Origin: an uncultured Verrucomicrobiae bacterium
GTDB lineage: Bacteria; Verrucomicrobiota; Verrucomicrobiia; Chthoniobacterales; JAATET01
Assembly (NCBI GenBank): GCA_963719495.1
Contig: CAVRCI010000002.1
Span: 64,001 to 128,000 of the forward strand
Length of the DNA stretch: 64,000 nucleotides
Direction of reading: 5' to 3'
Below are positions 7,891-46,118 of this stretch, one piece after another. The translations under genes were made by a program, and so were the position numbers. How positions within the stretch are numbered: the stretch's first letter is position 1; every line of letters starts with the position of its first letter. Below the pieces are notes generated by a model. That model had not been told where the DNA came from, searched no databases, and saw only the letters and a list, made by a program, of their open reading frames with translations.

Positions 7891-8411
7891 GTTAGACTCG
7901 TATTTGTATTCTGATGCTACCGCCCATGGTGAAAGATCGATTTCGATTCACCAGATGCTTTCGAGTGGATTCCGAAATAATACGTGAACAGAAATTGATG
8001 TCAGCGTCAAAATTGGAATGAAGCAGTCTCGCGCGCCAGTGATTGGAAGCGATTGGGTGCATTCCGATTGAATGAATTCGGATTCCATTTTTAACGGGCC
8101 GAGGCAGTGAAAATTTGGTCGATTCGTTTGGCTGTCTTTTAATCGAGTTGTCCATCCAGACATTCGACAAGTGGCTTTCTCGTGATGGGAACCTAAAGTC
8201 TCAATACCCACTCCGTAAAAGTGCAGTTCTACGCAAATGCACCGTTTTCGGGTCGGAATCGAGGTGGTCAAAAATCACCAAAAAAAATTCGGGTGCTGCG
8301 CACCAAATATGACTCGTCTTCGCCTCGTTTGGGATTCGGGTTTCTCGTTGCAGGTGACAAAAAGGTAGGGGTCGCTCGTATTCAGCCCGCCGGAGGCTCA
8401 CGGAGTCTAAC
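7891..8411 (-). other. ORF-less cassette family B
   Basis: Related cassettes 17523-18043, 21137-21732, 43919-44310, more distantly 45729-46118; shared hairpin+T-tract motif. Confidence 0.75.
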
Positions 8412-8524
8412 GTCAAGCTCAGCCACCCTGAGCGGGCAATCGAGCTAACCCCATGGTGAGCTGCCAATAGGGGGACCGAACAACCCCAGCCAGCGAAGCG
8501 GCTAGGGGTTGGCTGCAGCGCCTT

Positions 8525-8806
8525 GTTCGGATCCGCCCGTTCGTGGTCCCGTCGGATCTACAATCTGCAGCCTTGCTCGTCGCCATGCCGCTTGATAATC
8601 GACCCATACTAGCTAGTCAGACCGATGCGCTGCACTATGAAAATTGACGTCGAATGGACTGCGAAAAAATACCTTGGTTTGGGCTTCCGCACACTCAAAT
8701 TAACCTCATTGTGAACACCTTCCGAATACGCCAATTTTATACAAAGCAAATTGCGAACGATCTTTTTTGCAAATTGGACTTTCAGAAACTGGGGCATAGG
8801 TCCGAC
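8525..8806 (-). other. Cassette family D (no conserved ORF), copy 1 of 4
   Basis: Other copies 23157-23439, 46686-46968, 58510-58792. Confidence 0.75.
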
Positions 8807-8921
8807 GCCAAGCTCAGCCACCCTGAGCGGAGGACCGAACTCTTGAAAGAGATGTAAACTGCCACCCGGAAGTCAGAACAACGGCGACCAATGATCGGCT
8901 AGGGGTTGGCTGCAGCGCCTT

Positions 8922-9315
8922 GGTCGTCGTGACGGGTCGTAGACACAACGGCCCGCCGTAGCATCCGACAGGGGCTGAACCGTGGAAGTCAGGAACAACG
9001 CGACCACGTGAACAGAGGCTCGAGCCAGACTGGTCGTGGCCATATCTTCTCGTGATGGTGAAATCGTAGCCGAAGCGAATGAATCAACGAAGTCACTGAA
9101 ACGGAAGCTCGACCCGGCTCTGCGGGTGGAGCGGCGAGACGCTGAACGGCGGAGGGAGATCGGAGAGCTGGAAGAGGGCGTCTGTGACGAGGGGAGTCGG
9201 CGGATGGAAGGGGACGGGGTCATCCAGTCGAATCCGCTCGTCACAGTCGCCCGGGTGAATCACCAGCTAATGTCCCTGAACCGAACTCAGTCATTATTTA
9301 TTGTATAAGGCGACC
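8922..9315 (-). other. Cassette family E with GGT/ACC core
   Basis: Ends GGTCGTC...GGCGACC on plus strand; relatives 13478-13759, 52731-53012, 63982-end. Confidence 0.75.
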
Positions 9316-9448
9316 GTCAAGCTCAGCCACCCCGAGCGGATGATCAAGCCAACCCTGGGGTGAGCTGCCAGTAGCGGGTCCGAGCAACCCCGGCCAGCGA
9401 AGCGGCTAGGGGTTGGCTGCAGCGCCTTGTTAGCCTGTATTTGTATTG

Positions 9449-9787
9449 TTATTGAAATGCATCTGCCGGCATAGGCGCTGGTTCAACGATATTCGCTGGC
9501 GGGGGAGTGTTGGGATCGGGGACTTTAAAGATACGATTTGTATAGGGGTCTCTGACTTCGGTTCCTACTGGAAAGCCTCTAACATCAATATAACCTTTTT
9601 CGGGAGCGTATGGGCTTTGAACGAATCCAGGTTTATTACCGACATTGGTTGCTGATTGAATCTGAGCCGCCTGCTTCATGTCGCTGGAATCCGGATTGGA
9701 GGCGTTACCGTCAACCTGATCGCCAACATTTTTCTCTGAGCAAGCGACCAATGATACAATTATAGCGGTTATGATGAGCTTTTTCAT
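9449..9787 (-). CDS. Lipoprotein
   Basis: MKKLII...LVAC lipobox; GFVQSPYAP...DVRGFP.GTEVRDPYT motif. Confidence 0.8.
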   Translation of the reverse strand: MKKLIITAIIVSLVACSEKNVGDQVDGNASNPDSSDMKQAAQIQSATNVGNKPGFVQSPYAPEKGYIDVRGFPVGTEVRDPYTNRIFKVPDPNTPPPANIVEPAPMPADAFQ

Positions 9788-9980
9788 TATTTTACGGTTA
9801 AATAGGCTAACGTCAAGCTCAGCCACCCTGAGCGGGCGACCAAGCCAACCCCACGGTGAGCTGCAGGTAGCGGGACCGAGCAACCCCAGCCAGCGAAGCG
9901 GCTAGGGGTTGGCTGCAGCGCCTTGTTAGGACTGTATTTCCACGTTTCCCGTTCATTGGAAAGTGCATTGGAACAGTCAC

Positions 9981-10406
9981 TTATTTGAAGTTGTCTGGAT
10001 TTTGAACATGGTCGATGGCTACCCCCTTCTTTTTGGAGCTTCTCTTTGAATAAGTGCAGATGCAAATTAGAAAAGATGCTACGCATGCCGCTTTCAGAAT
10101 AAGCAGCAAGATCGGCTGAAACCAAGCTCTCGTAAATACCTCGATAAAATCTGATAGTCCGAATAAAGCAAATGAGATCGTGCATGCCATCAATATGTCC
10201 TGATCTCCCCGACTCTTTTTGCGGTTATTGAGAAATGCAAAGGCGATCGCCAGCCAGAATACTCCTTCGATGAGATTGAATATCTGGTCTAATTCAAGTC
10301 GGGGTATTCGAATAGCGATAAATCCAAGAATCATTGAAGCGATTGCGACTCCCCATATTCCGAATTCCAAAAATGCGGTAGGGAATGCAGTGTATTGCTT
10401 CTTCAT
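9981..10406 (-). CDS. Membrane protein
   Basis: Four hydrophobic segments; ATG just after R' box. Confidence 0.75.
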   Translation of the reverse strand: MKKQYTAFPTAFLEFGIWGVAIASMILGFIAIRIPRLELDQIFNLIEGVFWLAIAFAFLNNRKKSRGDQDILMACTISFALFGLSDFIEVFTRAWFQPILLLILKAACVASFLICICTYSKRSSKKKGVAIDHVQNPDNFK

Positions 10407-10544
10407 GAGTCCTAACGTCAAGCTCAGCCACCCTGAGCGGGCAACCGAGCCAACCCCACGGTGAGCTGCCAAAAGCGGGGCCGAGCAACCCCAGCCAGCG
10501 AAGCGGCTAGGGGTTGGCTGCAGCGCCTTGTTAGGCACGTATTT

Positions 10545-10802
10545 TTAGAGCGGTGCGATGGGGAGCAGCGGCTTTTCCTGTCTCGCGCGGTTCCAGTCCT
10601 CACGCAATTCATCAAGATGTTGGATTCTCCATTCGTCGACGAGTTGAAGTGCCTTTTTTGGGAGGCTACCTTCGTAGATCAGTCCGGTCTCAATCTCGAT
10701 GAGTGCTTCGTGCTCACCGTAGATGGCATGAAAATGGGTTGGTGGGTGATCTCGGTAGTAGAAGCGAATCCGGATCCCGTAGAATCTGCTTACTTCAGGC
10801 AT
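10545..10802 (-). CDS. DUF4160 family protein (TA component)
   Basis: MPEVSRFYGIRIRFYYRDHPPTHFHAIYG...IAPL signature. Confidence 0.88.
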   Translation of the reverse strand: MPEVSRFYGIRIRFYYRDHPPTHFHAIYGEHEALIEIETGLIYEGSLPKKALQLVDEWRIQHLDELREDWNRARQEKPLLPIAPL

Positions 10803-11055
10803 GTTGCACTCCTGATGGAATTGCTCCTGTGATCTCCCGGTATGCAGCATCTGAGCATATCTCAAGATCCTCTGACCATGCGATCTGTCCGAACTCTGCG
10901 ATGTGAACTGTGTTGAAGAATGCCTGGTCTGATAATGAAGAAAATACTCCAGATCGAACAGATTCAGACATATCAATCTGCCCCGTCGTGCCATCGGGAT
11001 ACGAGACCTCAACCTTGTAGTCGGGAAGGGGAGTTACCTTGTAAGGCCTGTTCAT
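10795..11055 (-). CDS. DUF2442 family protein (TA component)
   Basis: V.PLPDYKVEVSYPDG...FSSLSD..FF..V......IAW...LEICSD. Confidence 0.85.
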   Translation of the reverse strand: MNRPYKVTPLPDYKVEVSYPDGTTGQIDMSESVRSGVFSSLSDQAFFNTVHIAEFGQIAWSEDLEICSDAAYREITGAIPSGVQHA

Positions 11056-11274
11056 GCGTCTATAAGGTTATACTGACCTTCCGCATTTGAGAAGCCAGAG
11101 TTTTTTCACGGATGATGGACGAACATGAATTGCATTTCTCATCCGTCGGAGACTGCCCAACGTCAAGCTCAGCCACCCTGAGCGGGTGATCGAGCCAACC
11201 CTGAGGTGAGCTGCCGGTAGCGGGACCGAGCAACCCCAGCCAGCGAAGCGGCTAGGGGTTGGCTGCAGCGCCTT

Positions 11275-11940
11275 GTTAGGCCCGAGGGCGATCTGCTGCC
11301 CAGAACAATCTTGATCTCCAATGAGCCAACCCCGGAACTGATCTGTGAAGCACATATTCTCATCGGCTGACGAAGATAGGAAACCTCAATTCTTACCAAA
11401 AAAAATTCGACCTGCGGTGCTTTCTCGTTTTGGAACCAATGAAGTTTTCGCCTGTCGGTGAATTGAGCTGCGAGCGGGTCGAAAGGGCAAGTCATCCGCC
11501 GGAGGCTATCTCGTGGGAGATGGGGTGGAATCGGAGGGATCAAACTACGCTAAATGGAGCCGATCTGGTCATGAATGGCTCTGCAGGCAAGAGCTGATGG
11601 GCGGTCTATCGAGCAAAGTGCAGCGTTGTCCGATTGCGAGGTCGTCATGGTCGCTGCTCTGAGCGGGCCATGATGACCGGTCGATCTACAAGGCATGAAT
11701 CTCCAACTTCCCAGAGTCAGGTGATCGAGCATCACCCGGACTTGCTCGAACAACAGGTGTATAGATTTGTGGGCGTCTTGGGCAGGTGATGCGAGCCGAT
11801 CTGGAGTGATCCGGGGGATGAGAGGGTGAAAGGGCTGTCCCTCCGGGTCAGCTCCCGATCGGCGGTCGAGACTCCTGAGAACTTCCGCCTCCCGATGTAT
11901 ATATATCTCATCCGCCGGAGGCTCACAGGTATGGCCGAAC
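11275..11940 (-). other. ORF-less cassette family G
   Basis: No convincing ORF; homologous to 42878-43267; two GGA-hairpin motifs and one hairpin+T-tract motif. Confidence 0.7.
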
Positions 11941-12067
11941 GTCAAGCTCAGCCACCCTGAGCGGGCAATCAAGCCAACCCTGAGGTGAGCTGCCAGTAGC
12001 GGGACCGAGCAACCCCAGTCAGCGAAGCGGCTAGGGGTTGGCTGCAGCGCCTTGTTAGCCCTGTATT

Positions 12068-12298
12068 TCAGGTATGCAGCAATTCTCGCGCATGGGGGAT
12101 CTCTTCGGACCGAGCCGACCGAATGTCTTCCGACGACACTGTCACGACTGAAGCTGTTCGTCCCGTCAGCGTCACGAACTCGACCTCGTATGCTTCACCA
12201 GATCCGTAAACGTGAACAACAGCCCCGATGTCCCCAATTTCAAGAGAATCAGTGGGAATGGGGCGGGTTAAAATTACCTGTTCGTGTTCTTGGATCAT
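12068..12298 (-). CDS. DUF4926 family protein
   Basis: MIQEHEQVIL...GDIGAVVHVY...YEVEF signature. Confidence 0.85.
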   Translation of the reverse strand: MIQEHEQVILTRPIPTDSLEIGDIGAVVHVYGSGEAYEVEFVTLTGRTASVVTVSSEDIRSARSEEIPHARELLHT

Positions 12299-12304
12299 GA
12301 TGTT

Positions 12305-12637
12305 CTATAGCGGATATGCTGTGACGAGTCTTGGGAAATCTGCGGCCACGTCGACAATCCAAACTGCTCTGATTGTTGGTGATCGACCGTCCGGGCAATT
12401 GAGTGGACCGTCAACTTGGTATTTTGAGCCGTAGGGAGATTCCGAAACTCCTGTTACCGAGTTGCTCATCGCGTGCGCAATCAACGACCCCGCAAGAATG
12501 TGCCAGTCGTCGACTGTGAATCCGAACGAAGCGAAAAAGATCGCCTTCCCGCGGCCTTCGGGATGGGACGTGGCGAGGAGATACTCTGTGACCTTATCCT
12601 TCTGGATTTGAGCGTTGGGGATGTTTGGTAAAGTCAC
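12305..12637 (-). CDS. DUF6883-like putative toxin
   Basis: KVTEYLL..HPEG.GKA.FF...GF...W....PRLVTAYP; paired with DUF4926. Confidence 0.8.
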   Translation of the reverse strand: MTLPNIPNAQIQKDKVTEYLLATSHPEGRGKAIFFASFGFTVDDWHILAGSLIAHAMSNSVTGVSESPYGSKYQVDGPLNCPDGRSPTIRAVWIVDVAADFPRLVTAYPL

Positions 12638-12812
12638 TACTGGGTTTTACTATCTGACGGCGCCGAGGGCGATCTCTTTAATGGGCTAACGTCAAGCTCA
12701 GCCACACTGAGCGGACAATCGAGCCAACCCCATGGTGAGCTGCCAATAGGGGGACCGAACAACCCCAGCCAGCGAAGCGGCTAGGGGTTGGCTGCAGCGC
12801 CTTGGTAGCTCT

Positions 12813-13094
12813 TTATTTATTCAGGCGACGCATGATCCGCTCGGGATCGGATCGAAGATCGATGATCGCCTGCACGAATATGCGATTCCCTTCAATGGTA
12901 TAAAAGATTCCGAATGGAGATTTTGGAATGAGTAATCGACGAAATGGCTCAGAGTAAATTGGGCCCGACTTCGGAAAGCGGCCGATCTGGGCGATGCGAT
13001 CTTCGAATGCGATGTAAAAGGTGTCTCCGCGATCCGAGTAGATCTCCAAGAATTCGATTTCGGCACCGAGAAGAAGTTCAACTGCGAACCCCAT
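12813..13094 (-). CDS. parE: ParE/RelE toxin
   Basis: FP.SG......RRLLI...PFGIFY.......VQAIIDLRSDP. Confidence 0.85.
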   Translation of the reverse strand: MGFAVELLLGAEIEFLEIYSDRGDTFYIAFEDRIAQIGRFPKSGPIYSEPFRRLLIPKSPFGIFYTIEGNRIFVQAIIDLRSDPERIMRRLNK

Positions 13095-13304
13095 CTACTT
13101 CCCGATTCGGCGCTTGATCGTTTCCCATGGTGTTGAGGAATGTAGACCAGACTTGAAGGCCGAGTATCGTTCTTTGAGGATCTCGACAATGAGAGGATCT
13201 GGTTCAAGTGTCTCGGATATCGAGACTTGCGCCCACAGCTCGGTTGCCAGCTCAAACTTCTGGTCGTCCGTAAGCTGTTCGATTTCTGGTAGCTGCTCGA
13301 TCAT
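13095..13304 (-). CDS. Addiction module antitoxin
   Basis: LT.DQK.ELA.ELW...PWE.IK pattern. Confidence 0.85.
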   Translation of the reverse strand: MIEQLPEIEQLTDDQKFELATELWAQVSISETLEPDPLIVEILKERYSAFKSGLHSSTPWETIKRRIGK

Positions 13305-13310
13305 TTTCGT

Positions 13311-13339
13311 AAACTAGCCGGTAACTCGAAAGATGGCAA
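13311..13339 (-). promoter_or_regulatory. sigma70-like promoter, predicted leaderless
   Basis: TTGCCA-17-TAGTTT-6 nt-ATG. Confidence 0.65.
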
Positions 13340-13477
13340 TTCCCAGATTCATGGAGCTAACGTCAAGCTCAGCCACCCTGAGTGGGGCAACGAACGTCTA
13401 GGCAAGATGTTTGCTGGAAGGGGGATCGGTCGGCCAAGGCTTGCCGGTGATCGGCTAGGGGTTGGCTGCAGCGCCCT

Positions 13478-13759
13478 GGTCGTCGTGACGGGTCGCAGCG
13501 GAAGTGGCAATCAATAGCGTCCGGCAGGAACACGATACGGAAGTCGGGAAGAGCGTGATTTGCTGTAGGAGGTCCGAGTCACTGAGGGCATGCACATATC
13601 TCCTCGTGATGGCGAAAGCGTGGCTGAAAAAGACAGACAAACGAGATTACCAGGAAAGCAGAGGGATGCGGAACGATGAGGAGATGATGAGAACGATACT
13701 CGGACGAATAAGATCTTAAGGTCCTAAACCGGGTGTTCAAATCAATATATTAGGCGACC
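13478..13759 (-). other. Cassette family E
   Basis: GGT/ACC cores; similar to 52731-53012. Confidence 0.75.
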
Positions 13760-13883
13760 GTCAAGCTCAGCCACCCTGAACGGATGACCGAGCCAACCCC
13801 CAGGTGAGCTGCCAGTGGCGGGAACGAGCAACCCCAGCCAGCGAAGCGGCTAGGGGTTGGCTGCAGCGCCTTGTTCGGCTGTA

Positions 13884-14138
13884 TTACCTATCAGCCTTAC
13901 TGACATCGATCACCATCACGGCCTTCACAGCTTCATCAACCCAGTAGGTCACTGCGAAATCACCGATGATCTTCACCTGCCGATCTCGCATGGTAGCGTC
14001 TCTATCTATAAAATCTCCCGGAGAGTCAGAGTGATCGGAGAGTCCTGCAATGAATCGCATAACGTTTCGGCGCTGGGTTCCAGACTTGGGAACCTGATCC
14101 AGAAGATCGACATGCACGAATACGTCATACTGTGACAC
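13884..14138 (-). CDS. Putative RelE-like toxin
   Basis: Homologous to 34369-34632; second gene of small bicistron; start uncertain. Confidence 0.6.
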   Translation of the reverse strand: MSQYDVFVHVDLLDQVPKSGTQRRNVMRFIAGLSDHSDSPGDFIDRDATMRDRQVKIIGDFAVTYWVDEAVKAVMVIDVSKADR

Positions 14139-14145
14139 GAGCTTA

Positions 14146-14343
14146 CTACTGCTGATCAAGCTGCTGCTCGAACTCGCTTGGAGTCAACCAATGGGAAGAA
14201 TCGGAATCCTTGATGCGACTAGACAGAACTGACTGATAATCAGTGTCATGCGAGTGCCTGAGGTGGAATAGGAAGGCCGTGACTTCTCTTTGTTCGCCGT
14301 CAGAGAGGGCAGTCAATCCTCGCTTGATGTCTTCAACACTCAT
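14146..14343 (-). CDS. Putative antitoxin
   Basis: Homologous to 34629-34823; promoter TTGCCG-16-TACTCT-6-ATG. Confidence 0.65.
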   Translation of the reverse strand: MSVEDIKRGLTALSDGEQREVTAFLFHLRHSHDTDYQSVLSSRIKDSDSSHWLTPSEFEQQLDQQ

Positions 14344-14565
14344 AACGAAAGAGTAATCCGAATATTTTGGGCGGCAAGCTACACTTCAGAGCCGAACGTC
14401 AAGCTCAGCCACCCTGAGCGGACAAACAAGCCAACCCTTAGGTGAGCTGCCAATAGCGGGAACGAGCAACCCCAGCCAGCGAAGCGGCTAGGGGTTGGCT
14501 GCAGCGCCTTGTTCGGCTGCATTGGAAGCTCTATTAATCTTCGCAACAATCCAGACGATAAATGT

Positions 14566-15828
14566 CAGGGCCGACGCATCAAAAAAGATCGCGATGGAGG
14601 AAGTTTGGGCTGGTCCTATATTTTCCCGTGCGTAGATGGAGGAGATGCCCGAAACGCATCCCATCCAAAAAAGCCTGATCGAAGAGTTCAAACGCATAGA
14701 AGATCCGCGAGTATCGCGCACTCGCTACCATGAGTTGAGCGACATTCTAGTGATCGCGATCTCGACGCTTTTGTGCGCGGGCACGTCTTTCTACGACATG
14801 GAAGAGTTCGGTCGGGCCAAGGAAAAATGGTTCCGAACGTTTCTGAAGTTGCCCAACGGCATCCCCAGCCACGACACGTTCAATCGCGTGTTTTCGCTGA
14901 TCAATCCGGCGAGTTTTCACGAGTGCTTCATGAGGTGGACGCAGAGCGTGCGCGAACACATCGACCGGGAAATCGTCGCCGTCGACGGCAAAGCCCTCCG
15001 CGCAGCCTGCCAGGACGGCGGGAATGTGCGCTTCATCGTCAATGCTTGGGCAACCAGCAATCGACTTGTCCTGGGGCAGCTCGAAGTGCCCGACAAAACC
15101 AACGAAATCACGGCGGTTCCCACGCTGCTGCGAGCGTTGGAACTGCGTGGCTGCATCGTGAGCACCGACGCGATGGGGTGCCAGAAAGAGATCGCCCGAG
15201 AAATCATCGAGGCCGACGCCGATTACGTTCTTGCTCTCAAAGGCAATCACCAAACCGTCCATGAGGAAGTCAAAAGCTTCCTCGATGCCGAATTTGATCG
15301 CGAGCTCCAGAGCCCTCCAGTGCCCAAACCATCCACGAAGAAACCACCAAGCGCTCCCACTTTCGCATTCCTGGAAACCGTCGACAAAGGCCACGGGCGC
15401 TTGGAAATCCGGCGCTATTTCCAAAGCGTCGCCATCGACTGGTTCGCAGACATCAGCCAATGGGAAGGGCTGCAGAGCGTCGGAATGGTCGAATCCAGCC
15501 GCGAAATCAAAGGTCAAATCAGCGTGGAAAGACGCTACTTCCTGAGCAGCCTGCCCCTCGACGTCGGACTTTTCGCTCAAGCCGTCCGTGGACATTGGGG
15601 CGTGGAAAACTCCTGCCACTGGGTCTTGGACGTCATCCTGCGCGAAGATGGTTCCCGCGCCCGAACCGCTCACGCCGCCGAGAATCTCGCCACCCTGCGC
15701 CGCCTCGCCCTAAACCTGCTCTCTCGCGAAAAGTCCAAAAAACGCAGCATCAAGACCAAACAACTCGTCGCAGCCTGGGATCACGACTTCCTCCTGCACC
15801 TCCTCAATTTTTAGATGCGTCGGCCCTG
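14566..15828 (+). mobile_element. ISAs1 family element
   Basis: IR CAGGGCCGACGCATC at both ends; 10 bp target duplication CGATAAATGT. Confidence 0.95.
14636..15814 (+). CDS. ISAs1 transposase
   Basis: DPR, GIPSHDTF, AVDGK, NEITA, DAMGCQ, LKGN, HGRLE.R, HWGVEN motifs. Confidence 0.95.
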   Translation: MEEMPETHPIQKSLIEEFKRIEDPRVSRTRYHELSDILVIAISTLLCAGTSFYDMEEFGRAKEKWFRTFLKLPNGIPSHDTFNRVFSLINPASFHECFMRWTQSVREHIDREIVAVDGKALRAACQDGGNVRFIVNAWATSNRLVLGQLEVPDKTNEITAVPTLLRALELRGCIVSTDAMGCQKEIAREIIEADADYVLALKGNHQTVHEEVKSFLDAEFDRELQSPPVPKPSTKKPPSAPTFAFLETVDKGHGRLEIRRYFQSVAIDWFADISQWEGLQSVGMVESSREIKGQISVERRYFLSSLPLDVGLFAQAVRGHWGVENSCHWVLDVILREDGSRARTAHAAENLATLRRLALNLLSREKSKKRSIKTKQLVAAWDHDFLLHLLNF

Positions 15829-16330
15829 CGATAAATGTAGTGACGAGCGCTAGAAGCCCGAACCCGGAAATTGCTAGACCAAAAGAGGACGTGATGAGAA
15901 CTCCAGAAATATTCGTTGCCAGTTCCTTTGGATCCGCGACCCCTGAAGATCGCATGTGATCTCTGAACGAATACATGTTGTGAGCGAGACCTGCTGCGAA
16001 AATAGCGAATCCGCCGAGAAATGCCGTTGCAGATGAAGTGAAGGCCATAAAATACGGGTTTCTCATGATTAGAATGTTGTCGCCTGCTTAAGATTATACC
16101 GACTCGACGCGACCTCCATCGTATTGCGTGCCGGAGTCTGGATATGGAGTAAAAGAACTGGTTGGTTGCGTTACGAGTTGCTTAGGAATAGATCATCCAC
16201 CGGAGGTCGAGCCGAACGTCAAGCTCAGCCACCCTGAGCGGGCGACCAAGCCAACCCCCAGGTGAGCTGCCAGTAGCGGGACCGAGCAACCCCAGCCAGC
16301 GAAGCGGCTAGGGGTTGGCTGCAGCGCCTT

Positions 16331-16836: not shown

Positions 16837-16950
16837 GTCAAGCTCAGCCACCCTGAGCGGGTGACCGAGCCAACCCTTAGGTGAGCTGCCAGTAGCGGGA
16901 CCGAGCAACCCCAGCCAGCGAAGCGGCTAGGGGTTGGCTGCAGCGCCTTG

Positions 16951-17283: not shown

Positions 17284-17522
17284 TAGAGGCTTAAGTTAAA
17301 AATTTGGGCGCGTCGAAGAGTTGATCGACTGCTTTGTCCGAATGGGTCGATGTAATGTCGGAGGCGATTGAACGATGATATATATTCACTTCGAATTTAT
17401 TTAGGCTAACGTCAAGCACTGTCACCCCGAACGGGTGTGCGAACTACGGGTTGTGATCAACTGGAGGAAAGTCGTGGACAAAAGTTGGCAGCGGCGCGGC
17501 TAGGGGTTGGCTGCTGCGCCTT

Positions 17523-18043
17523 GTTAGACTCGTATTCGTATTGAGATGCTGCCGCCTATGGTGAAAATGATGGAGTTGGTTTCACCAGTTGCATTTGAAT
17601 GGAGTCCGAAATGATACGGCAACAGGAAGTGATGTCAGCTTCAAGATTGAAACGAAGCAGTATGGCGCATGAGTGATTGGAAGCGACAGGGGTGTTTTCC
17701 GAATGTATGAATTCCGATCCGTTCGGTAGCTGGATGCATAGGACTTGAGTCGTTTCGTTTGGTTATCGTTGGGTCCGGCAGTCTATCCAAATATTCAATA
17801 AGTGGCTTCCTCGTGAAAGGCACCTTAATTCTCAACGCAAACTCCGTGAAAAGTGACAGGTTAGCGAAAATGCAGAGTTTCAGAGGCAGAAACACGATGT
17901 TCAAAAATTGTCAAAAAAAATCGGGTGCTGCGCACCAAATATGACTCGTCTTCGCCTCGTTTGGGGTCCGGGCTCATCATTGCGGGTGGCAAACAAGTTG
18001 GAGTTACTCGGAGTCATTCCGCCGGAGGCTCATGGAGTCTAAC
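17523..18043 (-). other. ORF-less cassette family B
   Basis: Same length and blocks as 7891-8411. Confidence 0.75.
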
Positions 18044-21136: not shown

Positions 21137-21732
21137 GTTAGACTCGTATTTGTATTCTGCTGCTTCCACACTTGGAGAATCACGGATTCTGGATCACCAA
21201 CGGCAGTCAAACGGAATCCGAAATGTTACGGCAACTTGAGTTGTGAGGTTATCGAGAAATGCTGCTTACGATATCCGCGAACAATCCGGGCAATCGACGA
21301 CTCCAAGTTGGATCTGATTGACCGAATTCGGATCGAAAGTGACTGGTATCGGACGTCAACGATTGAAAGACAAAGGCTGCATTTCTGATGTATGAGTTTG
21401 GATTCGTTTTTAATCGGTAGTTGCAATGGGAAAATGATAACGATCCGTTACGCTTTCGCTTGATCGAGTTGTCCATCCAAACATTCAATAAGTGGCTTTG
21501 CGGTGAAAGGAACGAATATCCTCAATACGTGCGCCGTAAAAATTGCAGTGCTGCGCAAATGCACGGTTTTTGGGTCAGACCATAGATGGTTGAAAATCGC
21601 CAAAAAAATCGGGTGCTGCGCACCAAATATGACTCGTCTTCGCCTCGTTGTGGCTTCGGAGTTGACGTTTCGGGCAACAATCGGACAGGAGCTAATCAGA
21701 TATTCCGCGGAGGCTAATGGAGTGAGTCTAAC
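21137..21732 (-). other. ORF-less cassette family B (longer)
   Basis: Shares blocks with 7891-8411. Confidence 0.75.
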
Positions 21733-37399: not shown

Positions 37400-37846
37400 G
37401 AAATACGCTTGTCATTTGCTTCATGTTCGATTGCGATGTAAAGCAGCCGCCCAATTCCTTTCCTTGTCCAGCGGTGGTGAACGTAGAAGTAATCAATGTG
37501 GCCATCACGGTCGAGCTCCGCAAAACCGAGTATTGATTGCTGGTGGCGGACAACAAAAGGATTCTTCAGACGAATCCGATCGGCCCACTCATTTATATCT
37601 TTGTTTGATGGCGCCCAACGCTCGCATTGCGCTGGCGTGTAATCACGTCCGTTGACGATGTGAGTCGTGTCATAATATATTTTCCAAAGGATTGCCTCTT
37701 CTCCGGAAACATATCGATTAACGAGGTAAGTTGAATTGCTCATAGTGAAGCCGAACGTCAAGCTCAGCCACCCTGAGCGGGCAATCAAGCCAACCCCGAG
37801 GTGAGCTGCCAGTAGCGGGACCGAGCAACCCCAGCCAGCGAAGCGG

Positions 37847-38431
37847 CTAGGGGTTGGCTGCAGCGCCTTGTTCGGCATCAGTCTGACCAGCAGTCATTGA
37901 ATTTTCGGAGCAAACAATTCTCGTATGAATTGAAGTTATGTATATATTAGCTATCTCAAAAGTTTCCTCAATCCCTTCCCAAAAAGCCAAGTCTAGATTC
38001 TCAATTCTTGGACTCGACTGGAAATAACTCACGCAGATCTCGTTGTGCTTTTGCAATATCGTTCCATGTGCAAAAGCGTTTCTATAGCGAATTACCCTTG
38101 AGAATGTCTTCTCGAATTTATTCCGATCCTGCGGATCCAAAATTCGAAGTTGCTCACAAATCCAAAAGATTGTCTTTCGCTTACTCTCAAACGAAAAGAA
38201 ACTTGAGTGCACAATCTGATCCATGAATACATTGAGCAAATTTGGGTCATTTCTTATAAAGAAGGCGCCAATTATCTCAGCACAATTTTGTTCGATTCCG
38301 AGAGCACTCCGAATTACGAGACTGCCGTTTCGAAAGGCAATTTCGATTTCATCGAGTTGCATCTGCTGTGGAACATTTGCTTCCATCTGCATGATTGCCT
38401 TTGCTTGGAAGGGGAGCGTGATGATCTTCAT
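37847..38431 (-). CDS. Putative HEPN-like protein
   Basis: RNAFAH (Rx4H) motif in helical protein. Confidence 0.6.
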   Translation of the reverse strand: MKIITLPFQAKAIMQMEANVPQQMQLDEIEIAFRNGSLVIRSALGIEQNCAEIIGAFFIRNDPNLLNVFMDQIVHSSFFSFESKRKTIFWICEQLRILDPQDRNKFEKTFSRVIRYRNAFAHGTILQKHNEICVSYFQSSPRIENLDLAFWEGIEETFEIANIYITSIHTRIVCSENSMTAGQTDAEQGAAANP

Positions 38432-38573
38432 GGGAACTATAGCCGAACGTCAAGCTCAGCCACCCTGAGCGGGCAATCGAGCCAAACCCCAGGTGAGCTG
38501 CCAATAGCGGGACCGAGCAACCCCAGCCAGCGAAGCGGCTAGGGGTTGGCTGCAGCGCCTTGTTCGGCTGCAT

Positions 38574-38930
38574 TCATGGAAGTTCTACAGTTCGATTGAC
38601 CAAATCCCAATTTGCGACAAGCTTCAGGCGAGCGGTGGTTTGATTCCATTGCATTTCATCTACCATAGATGCCAACTCAATTGGTGCCGTTCCGCAAGAA
38701 AGGCCTTCGCGAGTGAATACAGTCACATATCCAGACTTATCACCCGATGAACCAGGCATCATTGGAACGCTGAATTGCCATGCGGAACAGGTTACGATTG
38801 CGAGAAACTCTCGATTGGGGCTTTGGTTGCGACGGCATTCGATCTGACGGAAGATGGTAAAGTAGCCTAAGAAACCTAATACAAGAACTATGGCGGTTCC
38901 GAGAATGATCAACTTCTGTCTGCGCTTCAT
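38574..38930 (-). CDS. Membrane-anchored hypothetical protein
   Basis: N-terminal TM; MMPGSSGD motif; duplicate at 52181-52537. Confidence 0.75.
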   Translation of the reverse strand: MKRRQKLIILGTAIVLVLGFLGYFTIFRQIECRRNQSPNREFLAIVTCSAWQFSVPMMPGSSGDKSGYVTVFTREGLSCGTAPIELASMVDEMQWNQTTARLKLVANWDLVNRTVELP

Positions 38931-39120
38931 GATCCAGCCCGGTCGAAAGGTGGTTTTCTCGTTCAGCAGGTTACTCGGGGTATTCATCCACCGGAGGTCG
39001 AGCCGAACGTCAAGCTCAGCCACCCTGAGCGGGCAATCGAGCCAACCCTGAGGTGAACTGCCAGTAGAGGGTCCGCGCAATCCCAGCCGCGAAGCGGCTA
39101 GGGGTTGGCTGCAGCGCCTT

Positions 39121-39500
39121 GTTCGGCTATAACCGCACAAGCTACGAGTGATGTTGCAATCACGCTGCCAACCCCTCCCTGAATTTGACCGTATGCATTT
39201 TATTATTGACCGTTCGAATAAGAGAAATGCCGTAAACTAGATGAAACTGAGCAGCGCGTGGAACGAGAGATGGCTTGAACAGGGCTTGTAGGGTGAGACC
39301 TGAAAATCACCAAAATATTTTCGCTTCGCTTCGCGAAGAAATGCGGATGAAGGGGAGGTGATGAAATGGCGTGGATTTTCTCCAACGTGCCGCAATTACA
39401 GAATCGCTGGGCATCACCATATATTCCGCTCCGTCAAGCAATGTCGGGAGCGATTAGCGAGTTGCTCAGGAAATATCATCCGCCGGAGGCTGAGCCGAAC
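39121..39500 (-). other. ORF-less cassette family F
   Basis: Homologous to 56467-56848; no conserved ORF. Confidence 0.75.
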
Positions 39501-39616
39501 GTCAAGCTCAGCCACCCTGAGCGGAGCAACGAACGTCTAGGCAAGGTGTTTGCCGGAAGGGGGATCGGTTGGCCAAGGCTTGCCTCAGACCGGCTAGGGG
39601 TTGGCTGCAGCGCCTT

Positions 39617-39966
39617 GTTCGTCGGAAACGGTGACTGAACAATGGAGGACCCGAGCGTCCGACAGGCTGACGATGACCAAATCCAGCAAGCGGCATCGTT
39701 AGAGCATTCAGTCGGAGGGGCTCCTGTGGTCCAGATTGACTACGCATTATAAATATATTGCTCGTGACACGAGAAGGGCGGAACGGATTCTGGATGGATC
39801 TACTCATGCCGCGTGAGCGCCCCAAGCGTGCATGGCAGGCGAATAACCGTTGGCGTCGAATCGGGAGTGATCAATGGAAAACCAGAATCGTGCTCAATCG
39901 TATGCGGAAGGGAATCGCGCAGCTCTGAACTTTTTCTTGATCTCAACTCCAATAAATCAGGCGAAC
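39617..39966 (-). other. ORF-less cassette family C, copy 6
   Basis: Similar to 3320-3669. Confidence 0.85.
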
Positions 39967-40079
39967 GTCAAGCTCAGCCACCCTGAACGGGCGAGCGGAG
40001 GCAACTGGTGATCAGCTGCAGGTAGAGGGTCCGCGCAACCCCAAGAGCGAAGCGGATAGGGGTTGGCTGCAGCGCCTTG

Positions 40080-40394
40080 TTAGGGCTGTATTATGATATA
40101 GCTTCCAGGGTCCGCCGTATCCACCGCTGTGACAATCTTCGGAATGAAGGGCTTGAGAAATGGCCAGCGAATCGTGAAGAGTTCGACAATAGCGATCTTG
40201 CGGTTGGACAAGTTTTGCTGATACCGGAGGTTCTTGTCTCCGAGGACAAAAACATCGAAGCGGGCGTCAATCAGCTTCATCAACTCACCATTTTTAACGC
40301 CGGCCCAACCCTGATGTTGCACCGAAGTAGTGGAATGGTGATCGAGATACTTCAGTAGCGGATGAGGAACATTCTCATCAATGATGACCGTCAT
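40080..40394 (-). CDS. DUF5615 PIN-like toxin
   Basis: Homologue of 18158-18475. Confidence 0.85.
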   Translation of the reverse strand: MTVIIDENVPHPLLKYLDHHSTTSVQHQGWAGVKNGELMKLIDARFDVFVLGDKNLRYQQNLSNRKIAIVELFTIRWPFLKPFIPKIVTAVDTADPGSYIIIQP

Positions 40395-40597
40395 GAATCT
40401 GATTGTGCCAGTCGTAGAAGCTCTTCCGCATCCACTTTTTGAACCGAGGGGAAAAAGCTGATGAAGTCATCCAGAGAGTATCCATCAGTCACGTAGTCCA
40501 AAAGCGTCTGAGCTGGAACGCGACTACCTCTGAAAACGATCGTGCCACCCAGAATTTCTGGGTCGGAGTGAACTGGACTGTGATCTAGCGTGATCAT
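40391..40597 (-). CDS. DUF433 antitoxin
   Basis: Homologue of 18456-18668. Confidence 0.85.
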   Translation of the reverse strand: MITLDHSPVHSDPEILGGTIVFRGSRVPAQTLLDYVTDGYSLDDFISFFPSVQKVDAEELLRLAQSDS

Positions 40598-40776
40598 GGC
40601 TGGAAGTTACTCTAGCTGGGCCTATCTGCAATCTCATATTGCCTCATGCCCTAACGTCAAGCTCAGCCACCCTGAGCGGGTGACCGAGCCAACCCCCAGG
40701 TGAACTGCCAATGGCGGGAACGAGCAACCCCAGCCAGCGAAGCGGCTAGGGGTTGGCTGCAGCGCCTTGTTAGCCC

Positions 40777-40971
40777 TCAGGATTTAATGTATGGGACATT
40801 CACGTCGTCCAACATTGGAAAATGCTTGCGGTTCAGAGTGTCTAGAATGAGATCATGCGAATCGGAAGTTGCGGCAATAATGCAGTCTGCAAGCCCGGTC
40901 CCGTGAGAGGGGCGAAACTGCCGCGAGTAGAGGCCTGCTTCTTCAGCTATCTCGACCGTCACCGGAAGAAC
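40777..40971 (-). pseudogene. vapC: 3' remnant of VapC toxin truncated by IS
   Basis: Near-identical to 3' part of 48661-49041. Confidence 0.88.
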
Positions 40972-42877
40972 CAGGGCATTTGGCTTGAAGCGCGAGGAAG
41001 CTGATAGGTAGGGGAAAAGAGAAATGGCTAGACAAAAGCGCGTCGAAAAGCTGAACTACGGTGGTGAAAAAGCAGGAGACCAGGAAAGGCGAGGGCATTG
41101 AAAGCAAGGCAACGCGATTGGAAGTGAAGGTAGCGCATTCGGCGGGGGACTGGCGCCGAGCGAAAGAGGCCCTTGGGCGAGAGCATGGGTTGGGAGCTGG
41201 GAGCGAGGCGGGAGACCGGCTCTGCCAGTTGGTGATGGAGGAAGGGAAGCTTGCCGGGGTAATGGTGTGGTGTGCGGCGGCGTGGCATTTGAAGGATCGG
41301 GACGAAGCGGTGGGATGGGATGCGGTGACGCGCTCGGAGCGGCTCAAGCTGGTGGTGCAGCTGCGACGCTTTCTGGTTTTGGAAGAGGCACGACGGCCGA
41401 ACCTGGCCAGCCAATGTCTTGGGGCCGGGATGCGGGAACTGGTGGAGCAATGGGAAAAGGTACACGGTTACCGACCACTTCTGGCCGAAAGCTTCAGCGA
41501 TCCAGAAAGCCATGCGGGAACGGTTTACAAAGCGACGAACTGGACGCAGGCGGGAACGACGAAGGGGTTTTCGCAAGACCACACCGACTACTACATCCCC
41601 AACGGGAGGCCCAAGAAGCTGTGGCTGAAAGAGCTCGCGCCCAAGGCCTGCGAGTTGATGAGCGCGCGCGAGTTGCCCGAAGCCAGCAAGGGGGCCTTGG
41701 TCGGACGCGGGGGAGCCCGCAGTCCGCTCAAGAACGCCGGACTCAAAAGCCTGCGCGACGCCTTGAGGGAGGTGCCCGATCCGCGTCACCCCAAAAGCCG
41801 CCGTCACCCCCTATCGGCGATGTTGACCCTGATCTCGCTGGGGTTGCTCATGGGGGCGCGCGACGTGCTCGATATCTGGAGGAAAGTGGCCTGCCTTTCC
41901 CAGAGCCAAAGAGAGGTGATCGGCCTGCGGGTGCGCGACAAGCAAAGTAAGCGGCTCAAGATGCCCGGCTACGATGCGCTCAACGACCTGCTGGCCGCCG
42001 TGGAACCCCACGCCTACGCCCATGCGCTGACGGCCTGGTTGCAAGCCAACGCGGGAGTGCTGCCCCGCAGCCTGGCCCTGGATGGCAAAAGCGTGGGCGA
42101 TGGACGCTGCGGCATGATCGTGACCCTTTGCCGTCATGAAGACGGGCGTCCGGTGGCCATGATCCCGGCCAGCGGAAAAAAAGAAGACTGCGAAGTCTCT
42201 GAAGCCCGCGCCCTGCTCTCCAATCCCGGGGTGGAACTGGTCAACGCGCTGGTCACGGCCGACCCGCTTCACAACAAAGAGGCCACCGCGCGAGTCATCC
42301 TGGAAAAGGGAGGCGACTATCTCATCGGCACAAAAGCAAATACCTCCAAACGATTGGAGGCAGCCACCCGCGCCCTGGAGGGCTCCCCTTTTTTGACCTG
42401 AGCTGCGAAGGCGATCACGGGCGCATCGACTCCCGCAAAGCCGCCGTCCAACCCATCTCCCCAGTCTCCGCCGGGCTGCCCGGTGCCCGCTCCGCCATCA
42501 CCGTGCAGCGCGACTGGCAGGAAAAGAAAGACCCCCACCAAACGCCCAAGAGCCATACCCGTATCTTCCTTTCCAGCCTGGAACCGGAAGAAAAATCCCG
42601 TTCCACCCGCGCCGTTCGCGAGCACTGGAGCATCGAGAACCGCAATCACCACAAACGCGACGCCTCCGCCTGGCAAGAAGATCGGCACCGACATCGCAGA
42701 CCAAAAGCTGCCCTCAACCTCGCCCTCACCCGCAACGTCCTGCTCGCCCTCATTCCCTTTGAGCACGGGCAACCCCTCGCTCACTTCTTCGAACTCTACC
42801 ACCGACACCCAGCAAAAGCTCTCAACCTTATCCTTCACGCTCGCCCCGCCCTATGACCCTTCCAGCCAAACGCCCTG
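40972..42877 (+). mobile_element. ISAs1-like element with DUF4338-fused transposase
   Basis: IR CAGGGCATTTGGCTTGAAG / CTTCCAGCCAAACGCCCTG; no target duplication. Confidence 0.85.
41061..42856 (+). CDS. DUF4338-like domain + ISAs1-type transposase, -1 frameshift at ~42385-42394
   Basis: RD..VGW...RFLVL...PNLASQ...GYRPLLAESF...GTVYKATNW; then VPDPR, LDGK, TADPLH, KAN; shifted frame gives HGRIDSR and HWSIEN. Confidence 0.82.
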
Positions 42878-43267
42878 CGCCGGAGGCCATGCCGTGGGGT
42901 GAACGATTGCCTTGGATGGTTCGAACGTCGAACAAAATAGCTGATCTGGCCATGAATGGCTCTGCAGGCATGGGCGGATGAGCGGTCGATTCGGAGCAAT
43001 TCCGTAAACGATCAATTTCATCGGGACGAGGTCTTCGTGGTCGCTGCTCTGAGCGGGCCACGATGACCGGTCGAGCTACAAAGGATGAATTGCATTCAAA
43101 TCGTGGCCACCGGAGAAGACGAGCAGATCTGTGGTGATGTGCGGGATGAGAGGGTGAATGGGCTGTCCTGGCACATCAGCCACAGATCGGCGGCCGAGCT
43201 ACCAGTGACTCTTCGCTGGCCAATGTATCAAATACATCATCCGCCGGAGGCTTCAGGAAAACCCAAC
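42878..43267 (-). other. Partial ORF-less cassette family G
   Basis: Homologous to ~11497-11940. Confidence 0.7.
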
Positions 43268-43381
43268 GTCAAGCTCAGCCACCCTGAGCGGGTCACCGAG
43301 CCAACCCTGAGGTGAGCTGCCAGTAGCGGGACCGAGCAACCCCAGCCAGCGAAGCGGCTAGGGGTTGGCTGCAGCGCCTTG

Positions 43382-43780
43382 TTAGGGCCGTATTGCGACG
43401 GGATCAAGAATGCTGCCGTCCATCAATACAAATACTGTCCAGAATGTGGGCTTTAGATCCTTTGACCCGTAGTTAACCTTGTAAAAGTAGCTGTCGTTAT
43501 AGGGTGAGGGAAGTCGATCAAGAACGATCTGAAATGGGCGCTCAGGAATATAGCCTGCCAAATTCTGTTTCAGGGTCCATTTCCGAGCAATAGTTTCAGC
43601 GTCTTTAACCGAAAGTGGTGGATCCTTATCAAATTTCCAGTGTGGTTGAGCATCCAATTGTTCGGAAGATGCGGACCAAACAAAATTCGGAGTCGAGTCG
43701 TGCGTCTGATCTATAACGTAGGATTCCGCCTGCACTTGGAGTGAGAATGCTAGAATTATGCTGAGTGGGATGTATTGCAT
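43382..43780 (-). CDS. Hypothetical secreted protein
   Basis: Signal peptide; PPLS...A...A and VLMDG motifs; duplicated at 44401-44823. Confidence 0.78.
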   Translation of the reverse strand: MQYIPLSIILAFSLQVQAESYVIDQTHDSTPNFVWSASSEQLDAQPHWKFDKDPPLSVKDAETIARKWTLKQNLAGYIPERPFQIVLDRLPSPYNDSYFYKVNYGSKDLKPTFWTVFVLMDGSILDPVAIRP

Positions 43781-43918
43781 GGTATGTATGTGTTGGTGCC
43801 CTAACGTCAAGCTCAGCCACCCCGAGCAGGCAGTCGAGCCAACCCTGAGGTGAGCTGCCAATAGCGGGTCCGAGCAACCCCAGCCAGCGAAGCGGCTAGG
43901 GGTTGGCTGCAGCGCCTT

Positions 43919-44310
43919 GTTAGACTCGTATTGCTTTTCTCCGTTTCTGTATACTTTGTTTGCTAAGTATAAGTGTGTGAGGTAAGCTGTCTTAGATGTG
44001 GTGATGGTGGAGGAGTTAAGTTCAGTGAGCCAGTAGCATCAGTCCTGATTGAATGAATTACACAAAATCACCTAAAAAATTCGTTTGCTGCGCACAAAAT
44101 ATGAGTTCGTCTTCGGATCACTTTCAATAACTGTTCTCGCTTCGCTCGACTTAGAATTCAAGCCACTCAGTGAATTCATCCACCGGAGGTCTGCATATCG
44201 ATACAAAATCCGCAGGCTCCGTTGCAAATGTTCGGCTTGGCGGGAGCGCTTCATGCATCTCATTACCTCATCCACCGGAGGTCTTCATGACTTTTGTATA
44301 AGAGTCTAAC
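43919..44310 (-). other. ORF-less cassette, family B-related
   Basis: GACTCGTATT end, hairpin+T-tract, two ACC-GGA-GGT motifs. Confidence 0.7.
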
Positions 44311-44400
44311 GTCAAGCTCAGCCACCCTGAGCGGGTCACCGAGCCAACCCTGAGGTGAGCTGCCAGTAGCGGGACCGAGCAACCCCAGCCAGCGAAGCGG

Positions 44401-44823
44401 CTAGGGGTTGGCTGCAGCGCCTTGTTGGGGCCGTATTGCGACGGGATCAAGAATGCTGCCGTCCATCAATACAAATACTGTCCAGAATGTGGGCTTTAGA
44501 TCCTTTGACCCGTAGTTAACCTTGTAAAAGTAGCTGTCGTTATAGGGTGAGGGAAGTCGATCAAGAACGATCTGAAATGGGCGCTCAGGAATATAGCCTG
44601 CCAAATTCTGTTTCAGGGTCCATTTCCGAGCAATAGTTTCAGCGTCTTTAACCGAAAGTGGTGGATCCTTATCAAATTTCCAGTGTGGTTGAGCATCCAA
44701 TTGTTCGGAAGATGCGGACCAAACAAAATTCGGAGTCGAGTCGTGCGTCTGATCTATAACGTAGGATTCCGCCTGCACTTGGAGTGAGAATGCTAGAATT
44801 ATGCTGAGTGGGATGTATTGCAT
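44401..44823 (-). CDS. Hypothetical secreted protein (duplicate, extended into attC)
   Basis: TAA>CAA change in R'' box. Confidence 0.78.
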   Translation of the reverse strand: MQYIPLSIILAFSLQVQAESYVIDQTHDSTPNFVWSASSEQLDAQPHWKFDKDPPLSVKDAETIARKWTLKQNLAGYIPERPFQIVLDRLPSPYNDSYFYKVNYGSKDLKPTFWTVFVLMDGSILDPVAIRPQQGAAANP

Positions 44824-44962
44824 GGTATGTATGTGTTGGTGCCCTAACGTCAAGCTCAGCCACCCCGAGCAGGCAGTCGAGCCAACCCTGAGGTGAGCTG
44901 CCAATAGCGGGAACGAGCAACCCCAGCCAGCGAAGCGGCTAGGGGTTGGCTGCAGCGCCTTG

Positions 44963-45523
44963 TTAGCCCTGTATTCTTTTCAGACGGGTTCTCGTGTCGT
45001 CGAGGGTTGTTCTGAGTTCCTCAATATCTGAGTCAGGCATGTGATCAGCAAGAAGCTCGATGAAAAAAGAATCTGACTGAGTCGACTGATGTAAAAGCTG
45101 CATGATGTCGGCTTCGTAAATTGCAATACGATCGAAATCAAACTGACGATACAGGCTCGGAAGCGCGAATAGCTTGAGGAGGATCAATCCATCCACATTT
45201 CCCGTGGACAGGGAGCCGATCTCATACTGCATGGATTCGGTGAAATCATCGGCAATCATCTTGAAAACCCTGTGTTCTGCGAATAGGACATCCACACGGA
45301 GGCCGTCGAAGTCACCGTAGGCAAACATGTCGCTTCGTCGGGCAATCTTGAGCTCGGGAATATCAGCGAGACGTGGTGCCGAGATGATCAAATCAATATC
45401 ATCAGTATTGCGACCTCTGACATGTTGGAGCAATGCAATGCCTCCCACTACGACAAATGGAATGTTGCGAGCACGAAGGAGCGAAAGAAATGATGAGACG
45501 AGTTCTGGATAGTCTGCAGACAT
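44963..45523 (-). CDS. Nucleotidyltransferase-fold protein (duplicate of 1917-2477)
   Basis: Identical translation. Confidence 0.8.
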   Translation of the reverse strand: MSADYPELVSSFLSLLRARNIPFVVVGGIALLQHVRGRNTDDIDLIISAPRLADIPELKIARRSDMFAYGDFDGLRVDVLFAEHRVFKMIADDFTESMQYEIGSLSTGNVDGLILLKLFALPSLYRQFDFDRIAIYEADIMQLLHQSTQSDSFFIELLADHMPDSDIEELRTTLDDTRTRLKRIQG

Positions 45524-45728
45524 GGGTCGGCCGAGTGTAACCGGATTGGCGAAGTGGGCCAATGCGATTATCTTACCGGGATGAAGCGGGGCGGGCATAG
45601 GTTTAATGGGCTAACGTCAAGCTCAGCCACCCTGAGCGGGCAATCAAGCCAACCCTGAGGTGAGCTGCCAATAGCGGGACCGAGCAACCCCAGCCAGCGA
45701 AGCGGCTAGGGGTTGGCTGCAGCGCCTT

Positions 45729-46118
45729 GTTAGCCTGTATTGTGTTTCTCGATAGGCGCTATCGATCGCGTTCAAAGGTTTCTGGTGAAGTTGATGTGTC
45801 GATGCGGGTTGTGAAGCTACAGTAGTTGTGGCGATCTTGAATCATGTCTTCCCGGTCGCTCTATCGGTAAAGTAGTATGTCCTGATCCCAAGAAAAACGT
45901 CTGCATAAAAATGCGAAAATCGGCCAAAAAAATTCGGCGCTACGCGTAAAAGTGAAATCGTCGTTCCTCCTCATTTAGGTTTTGGACAGGGTTACTGAAT
46001 GTCGGCGTCTTGGCATGTGAGAACGGTGCTCGAGAGAGTCGAACCGGAGCGGTTGTGGTCGATCCTCATGGTCATCGTTCCTAATACACTCATTTTATTC
46101 ATTGTATCAGAGGCTAAC
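45729..46118 (-). other. ORF-less cassette, distant family B
   Basis: No ORF >=60 aa; CGC-GTA-GCG hairpin + CGAATTTTTTT on minus strand. Confidence 0.7.

Follow-up and report, generated by a model that had tools for sequence, protein, structure and literature searches.

Large integrons commonly hold gene-less cassettes, which, in the accounts cited here, have so far been explained as promoters or small RNAs (sRNAs) (10.1101/2023.11.21.568050; PMC8876359). Those of Vibrionaceae and Treponema are bounded by attC sites, poor in open reading frames (ORFs) and multi-copy, and they lie in large sedentary arrays together with toxin-antitoxin genes; promoters or sRNAs are what these sources describe in them, with no DNA mini-hairpin module in the parts that we draw on (10.1101/2023.11.21.568050; PMC8876359). 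We analyzed a stretch of 64,000 nucleotides (the window, meaning this whole stretch, C2:64001-128000) from G000, an uncultured Verrucomicrobiae genome (GCA_963719495.1), in which a preliminary description had noted a recurrent minus-strand hairpin with a GNA loop, a linker and a T run (motif B) and a plus-strand hairpin with a GGA loop (motif A). The whole window lies within a chromosomal integron array of about 200 cassettes (C2 about 26-175 kb, minus strand), and all six B sites first noted sit in gene-less cassettes. Motif B is genuine: it is a DNA mini-hairpin module under selection in these cassettes, and we read it, with somewhat less than even confidence, as a landmark in single-stranded DNA (ssDNA) of the repetitive extragenic palindrome (REP) type. 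A literature search found no report of such a hairpin module in integron cassettes.

Loops of the GNA class are very stable in DNA, far less so in RNA, and a poor substrate for SSB, the protein that binds single-stranded DNA, and mini-hairpins with such loops occur at single-strand priming sites (PMC13037366). RSF1010 ssiA, the phage G4 origin and the N4 virion polymerase promoter share the C-G closed GNA loop with B, and the placing of A and B on opposite strands is like that of ssiA and ssiB; unlike these hairpins, B has shorter stems and other flanks, and a cognate primase or polymerase would be putative (PMC13037366). The spacers of CGTC-type REP dimers have two small stem-loops at their ends, 20-23 bp apart (PMC3733652), and REP composites resemble our locus in their small stem-loops with opposite-strand partners. 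Judged by eye, REP dimers in other phyla carry the same 22-nt core and tail as B. B differs from the REP spacer stem-loops in lying in integron cassettes, in its confinement to arrays, in having no full REP palindrome and in the distance of its partner, 88-170 nt. Finally, B shares with the ops and opsX elements, which RfaH and UpxY read, a 9-nt hairpin consensus on the same (sense) strand (PMC11685472), and an RfaH-like gene is present in the host; unlike them, B has other bases at the pause site and no pause hairpin was seen upstream of it, nor was it seen in the host operon leaders that were written out.

Motif B sites in gene-less cassettes

The six minus-strand sites carry the GNA hairpin, linker and T run just as first described, with loops at 8299-8297, 11415-11413, 17931-17929, 21619-21617, 44091-44089 and 45943-45941. 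A pattern of hairpin, linker and T6 gave eight matches in the window, corresponding to these six sites, against 0.01 expected; none of 100 shuffled windows reached eight, and a control in which the GNA loop was put on the opposite strand had no match in the window. Throughout the G000 genome the hairpin was found at 10 of 157 linker-plus-T6 sites, eight of them in this array, one in a mini-array of contig C7 and one elsewhere, which places nine in cassette arrays. Two further B copies (39311-39338 and 56658-56685), missed by the preliminary description, have no linker and lie 153-157 nt from A. Five of the six window copies can be aligned across the entire A-B segment; therefore, their spacing and stem variants represent about three lineages and not six independent cases.

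Cassettes of family 9 (family numbers are labels of this analysis) lie at 7891-8411, 17523-18043 and 21137-21732; here and below, cassettes and B copies are on the minus strand and A copies on the plus strand. In the first, B (8280-8304; 5-bp stem, GCA loop, linker, T8) is 95 nt from A (8389-8397; 3-bp stem, GGA loop, 5' tail partly changed). The second has its B (17913-17936; 5-bp stem, GCA loop, linker, T8) again 95 nt from A (18018-18029), and the third has a B (21602-21624; 5-bp stem, GCA loop, linker, T7) and a degenerate A with its loop at 21709-21711. The family 8 cassette (11275-11940) contains two A copies (11495-11506 and 11911-11922); its B (11398-11418), with a 3-bp stem, a GCA loop, the linker and T8, is 88 nt away from the inner one. 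Similarly, the tandem A of the family 5 cassette (43919-44310) occupies 44179-44190 and 44271-44282; B (44074-44094), with a 3-bp stem, a GCA loop, the linker and T6, is 96 nt away from the inner copy. The second half of a family 66 cassette, behind a short attC (about 46112-46177), was bounded from the sequence at 45729-46118 and holds a B with GTA loop (45926-45946; 3-bp stem, linker, T7) and a degenerate A (loop 46046-46048). Finally, two cassettes of family 10 carry the B variants with GAA loop: 39121-39500, with A at 39479-39490 and a B at 39311-39338 whose T tract is broken, and 56467-56848, with A at 56828-56839 and B at 56658-56685.

These cassettes are bounded by attC sites and belong to an array with an integron integrase, whose gene lies outside the window at C2:176720, divergent from the array (TIGR02249, 301 bits; cut-off 265). 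Over C2 about 26-175 kb we counted 201 right and 199 left attC ends on the minus strand; the window (1-64000) is the middle part of the array, with 92-94 attC sites of about 127 nt each and 94 copies of the attC arm. The motif cassettes hold no conserved ORF: length differences between copies break the frame, the codon score agrees, and Pfam returned nothing for nine ORFs taken from them. A coding reading based on a helix-turn-helix-like frame on the plus strand was ruled out by the broken frame and the empty Pfam search.

For comparison we used five genomes of the same genus (G001, G002, G003, G004 and G005), of which G001, G004 and G005 have arrays like that of G000. The 589 cassettes fell into 342 families, and the 321 families of 200-1500 nt were classed by coding status. 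With a loose definition of B, tuned on the same data and applied to related families, B was found on the array sense strand in 12 of 78 gene-less families and 1 of 215 coding families (p=7e-7; four genomes), and in none of 28 intermediate ones. The opposite-strand control over families gave one match, motif A itself. B families exceed other gene-less families in copy number (p=2e-4), and B recurs in three to four lineages with flanks that cannot be aligned, always on one strand. Three B copies in a 19-attC segment of G004 that has the other orientation have a broken tail or linker.

Conservation of motif B

The C-G closed GNA loop and two base pairs are kept in 87 of 90 B copies (13 families), and the six core columns show an identity of 0.99-1.0, against family means of 0.82-0.98. 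Stems range from 3 to 7 bp and the loop is GCA, GGA, GAA or GTA, its middle base varying within as well as between families. A conserved cGNAg core with a free middle base is the signature of DNA mini-hairpins, and the 87 copies have it.

The T run reaches six or more in 52 of the 90 copies and is shorter in 38, and the linker as first described is present in 24. In all 85 run-bearing copies the run begins 3-10 nt from the stem and never abuts it; the stem itself has at least 4 bp in 67 copies and less in 23. Since the T run and the linker decay and the run never abuts the stem, a terminator or an sRNA is unlikely. The preliminary description had proposed, as one option, an atypical terminator defining an sRNA of about 100-130 nt; we considered an intrinsic terminator that would end an sRNA of about 100 nt beginning near A. 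B does lie on the sense strand with T6-8 and a simple scan flags 8304-8292 as terminator-like, but the same scan gives two sites where 4.1 are expected, RNA folds were no better than shuffles in nine of nine tests (z -0.5 to +2.3), and Rfam and ARAGORN returned nothing over the window. According to the general rules for sigma-70 promoters and terminators that we applied, an intrinsic terminator has a stable RNA stem directly adjoining an intact U tract. B lacks this configuration, and we consider the explanation very improbable.

Concerning its history, the A-B block could be an inherited relic with no present function, captured once or a few times and spread by the integrase, its hairpin kept through a short divergence time or palindrome self-repair. 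This would agree with the alignment of five of the six window copies over the block, with the decay of the T run and the linker, and with the 30-nt window round B, which stands out in one of five large families and is not unusually conserved in the other four (percentiles 0.29-0.76). It would also agree with the lack of recurrence in 300 class-level genomes (at most two matches each, mostly coding) and in cassettes among 13 metagenome matches. Against a relic stand the core, which persists in 87 of 90 copies although its middle loop base is variable, and the recurrence of B in three to four lineages with unalignable flanks, always on the same strand; we regard a relic as unlikely.

Motif A, its pairing with B and other features of the array

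In the preliminary description, a plus-strand GGA hairpin (one degenerate) lies about 85-100 nt from B in five of six cases, the two hairpins bracketing a short segment from opposite strands. The partner was confirmed at four sites, where A has a 3-bp stem and lies 88-96 nt from B, loop to loop; at 21612 and 45938 A is reduced to the closing pair, 92 and 105 nt from B, respectively. A fixed bracket of about 100 nt was not borne out: there is no single A-B distance but two classes, of 88-105 nt and 140-170 nt, and 13 of the 20 plus-strand A matches in the window have no B in their own cassette. Of the 78 gene-less families, nine combine A and B, three carry just B, 14 carry just A and 52 lack both; A is thus present in 9 of 12 families with B and in 14 of 66 without it (p=5e-4). 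The A-B pairing is real but largely inherited.

The origin idea of the preliminary description would make A and B paired single-strand initiation signals, with A priming the bottom and B the top strand of the excised cassette, a host-dependent mini-replicon like the ssiA/ssiB pair of RSF1010. The co-occurrence of both motifs on opposite strands of one segment is in line with it, as are the mini-hairpins of ssiA and the G4 origin (PMC13037366) and the position of A next to attC on the recombining bottom strand, with a stem that covaries in four ways. The two spacing classes speak against it, and so do the usual occurrence of A alone and in 22 coding families, the longer stems of the known ssi hairpins (PMC13037366) and the absence of a cassette among metagenome matches of the paired pattern; neither iterons nor a rep gene were noticed. 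We consider this quite improbable.

Motif A lies on the bottom strand in 48 families and on the other strand in three, mostly at cassette 5' ends. Cassettes starting with A number 137 of 589 (47 of 342 families), coding ones included, with A for example at 4873-4884, 16196-16207 and 59981-59992. A leader of about 45 nt with A is often common to unrelated ORFs; A plus its shared leader may serve as a promoter module, or else be a trace of how cassettes are formed. Neither A nor B was seen in the attI region.

The leaders bear on the main rival explanation, a promoter and antitermination cassette in which B would be an ops-like non-template hairpin for the host RfaH-like protein. In 12 of 13 B families the sense strand fits the 9-nt hairpin consensus of opsX (PMC11685472), and the genome has a NusG paralogue, a stand-alone RfaH-like gene whose best matches are RfaH, below curated cut-offs, and which retains the TRG motif. 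Coding cassettes with A have a longer leader, the median position of their first ATG being 77 nt (n=26) and that of the others 17 nt (n=180), and 3' of A a TG and a -10-like hexamer stand in register (T 79%, G 83%, A 64% and T 60% of 47 leaders); gene-less cassettes are, besides, known as promoters (10.1101/2023.11.21.568050). On the other hand, the opsX consensus is scarcely more than a generic mini-hairpin, and its matches in intergenic DNA of the host are not biased towards the sense strand (108 sense and 172 antisense; control 127 and 153). In the leaders written out for 12 polysaccharide anchor genes and 40 long operons, based on rough gene calls, a B-like site was not seen, and the two bases 3' of the B hairpin are not pyrimidine-purine, unlike those of two opsX 12-mers (compared by eye; PMC11685472). 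Inspection by eye found no sigma-70 boxes in fixed register round B, in comparison with host tRNA promoters. Moreover, B copies are most numerous in G005, whose RfaH-like paralogue carries a frameshift that may be an assembly error, and G002 and G003 have the paralogue although no family 9 cassette was found in them. We place this explanation on the unlikely side. The paralogue (C13:409810 of G000; L135:1255-1860) lies upstream of secA and is conserved in four of the five same-genus genomes.

Nine gene-less families terminate in 9 nt that are complementary to the next attC's left arm, a block resembling a decayed 3' half of attC (in the window, for example, 4400-4495, 11275-11370 and 56467-56560). 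It is restricted to families that have at least one of A and B (9 of 26, against 0 of 52 gene-less families with neither and 0 of 215 coding ones), and it could compete with attC folding. The attC upstream of the first motif cassette (8405-8531, minus strand) has at its apex a GAA-loop mini-hairpin on the bottom (plus) strand. The cargo of the array includes many toxin-antitoxin pairs, acetyltransferases and unknowns among the 95 ORFs scanned. A 350-nt gene-less cassette without A and B (3319-3669 and eight more in the window) occurs 28 times in the array of G000, and the dominant gene-less family differs by genome, with 44 copies in G005, 20 in G001 and 16 in G004. The short attC at 46112-46177 is of a different type and links a coding cassette to the family 66 gene-less cassette; the same pair is found again in the C7 mini-array, about 38-40 kb. 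Insertion sequences lie inside cassettes on the plus strand at 5746-6884, 14636-15814 and 41061-42401 (DDE_3, DDE_Tnp_1), and in the ORF of the last a DruA/Mom-like domain is accompanied by a DDE_Tnp_1-associated one.

REP elements, strands and the reading of motif B

REP composites are plentiful in G000 and carry GAA-loop mini-hairpins, of which 114 are intergenic. In two counts the intergenic hairpins were distributed 97:19 and 90:14 between the C-rich strand and the other, the latter being 5.1 times the expectation, and REP words gave 121:7, 55:0 and 57:1. A-like hairpins adjoin host REP elements at three places. The sense strand of the main array is likewise the C-rich strand in all four genomes, the 19-attC segment of G004 being the exception. 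Twelve Y1 transposase matches were found in G000, one of which (C13:356865) is clearly flanked by GNA-loop palindromes and may act on A or B. A reverse transcriptase, which could have pointed to an origin of the diversity-generating retroelement or intron type, had no match in G000.

The GC skew of G000 is very strong (up to 0.3), yet gene strands are even (1727 vs 1671), and the REP composites are nearly all oriented with replication. The G-rich strand is in general the leading one; since the S10 operon, nusG and a tRNA-Ala/tRNA-Ile pair typical of rRNA spacers all lie on it, we infer the same for G000, a call based on these three operons and not confirmed by dnaA, which does not lie at a skew switch. 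In arrays of some 200 cassettes, the bottom strand of attC is the G-rich one, the putative template of lagging-strand synthesis. Arrays of that orientation never exceed 22 cassettes in the source consulted (PMC5371416), so that, if the strand call is right, the arrays of G000, G001, G004 and G005 are exceptions to this ceiling.

Outside the genus, a class-wide pattern had matches in 46 of 301 genomes, at most two per genome outside G000, and the 29 foreign loci inspected lie mostly within long ORFs. Motif A had 17 matches in G000 and at most two elsewhere among 401 genomes of the phylum, and 13 loci of these other genomes, when inspected, had no cassette context. None of the 13 metagenome matches of the A-B paired pattern is in a cassette; one is in an element resembling a REP or a miniature transposable element with inverted repeats (MITE). 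A 22-nt B pattern found 13 loci in genome contigs: three in arrays of this sort in uncultured Verrucomicrobiae, three coding, one intergenic in Flavobacterium and six in REP elements. These six, of ten loci outside Verrucomicrobiae, lie by eye within REP dimers or composites of Dyella, Devosia and two clostridial genomes (four loci), the labels GTAG-type and CGTC-type for foreign repeats being assigned by eye after the scheme in the cited part of PMC3733652. The B-like hairpins of Dyella and Devosia are each faced by another GNA hairpin, about 20 nt away on the other strand.

Among viral contigs, GNA-loop matches numbered 18 and complementary-loop matches eight, with a stem of at least 3 bp in 12 of 18 and 2 of 8, duplicates included; motif A had one chance-like match. 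Four related contigs (L094-L097, 35% GC) have a version of B with a 6-bp stem between genes: a conserved non-coding region of about 150 nt (around 1350-1560), near an ORF that looks portal-like by eye, ends in the hairpin directly before a TATA-like box. Two viral or plasmid-like contigs (L106 and L111, 150-320) carry several GNA mini-hairpins in runs with the same tail, resembling single-strand origins. The plasmids searched gave no match, and the phages one 32-nt chance match.

We prefer a REP-like reading at the ssDNA level because of the loop rule, the strand specificity, the co-occurrence of A and B and the matches inside REP composites. From the preliminary description we retain REP-like ssDNA signals on opposite strands, and we give up a fixed bracket, the MITE ends and the terminator or sRNA. 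The ends of the A-B segment are unlike each other, and neither terminal inverted repeats nor a target duplication were apparent round it in the alignment or in the full cassettes, which were not scanned specifically for them. B is also no REPIN (REP doublet forming hairpin): the cassettes lack two like inverted repeats at a conserved distance and a full palindrome with foot tetranucleotide, the spacing is of two kinds, and the copies are confined to arrays instead of being dispersed over intergenic DNA. On the preferred landmark reading, the B hairpin would fold in ssDNA in vivo, not in RNA, would resist SSB and would be read by a DNA-processing protein during cassette copying or movement. Candidate readers are the REP-flanked Y1 (HUH) transposase of the host and the replication-restart or priming machinery. 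The A-B segment would descend from a REP-type composite, A being a clipped REP-like arm and B a spacer stem-loop, and its present spread would be due to shuffling by the integrase, not to a transposase.

Several observations weigh against this landmark reading. Nearest-neighbour DNA folding gives no advantage over shuffled sequences (z -0.5 to +1.2), in a model that presumably has no GNA bonus. The cassettes show no full REP palindrome with foot tetranucleotide, A being a 3-bp stem with one tail, nor was a sharp boundary of insertion seen in them. Outside the host arrays there is just one B-like intergenic site; array A is on the G-rich strand, and the three host A-like copies are on the C-rich strand or ambiguous. 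Sense and C-rich strands coincide, which makes a transcription role inseparable from a replication role. Large gene-less families of 30, 17 and 15 copies have neither A nor B, and inspection showed a real ORF in at least five of the 14 gene-less families with A only, so that the contrast in copy number is inflated; to this is added the definition of B tuned on non-independent families, mentioned above. Elsewhere the module is rare, with 3 of 101 genomes in the Devosia family and one to three matches per genome in five genomes, two of the three in Dyella being coding.

A broader proposal makes gene-less cassettes REP-derived ssDNA modules and A, which also heads 22 unrelated coding families directly behind the attC crossover, a footprint of cassette genesis. 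A REP-type mini-hairpin would be the point at which DNA is cut or joined, an attC would be supplied to it, and the A-B cassettes would be self-favoured blanks; we find it distinctly unlikely. Explanations other than those considered here, the landmark, the ops-like element, the relic, the paired origin and the terminator or sRNA, receive only the slightest weight.

The evidence comes from one uncultured genus and from sequence. If true, a selected DNA hairpin code in gene-less cassettes would be a third role for them, beside promoters and sRNAs. It would bear on how cassettes are made and amplified, through a link to the single-strand chemistry of REP elements and HUH enzymes, and on how AT-rich arrays of 150 kb are transcribed, through loading of the RfaH type.

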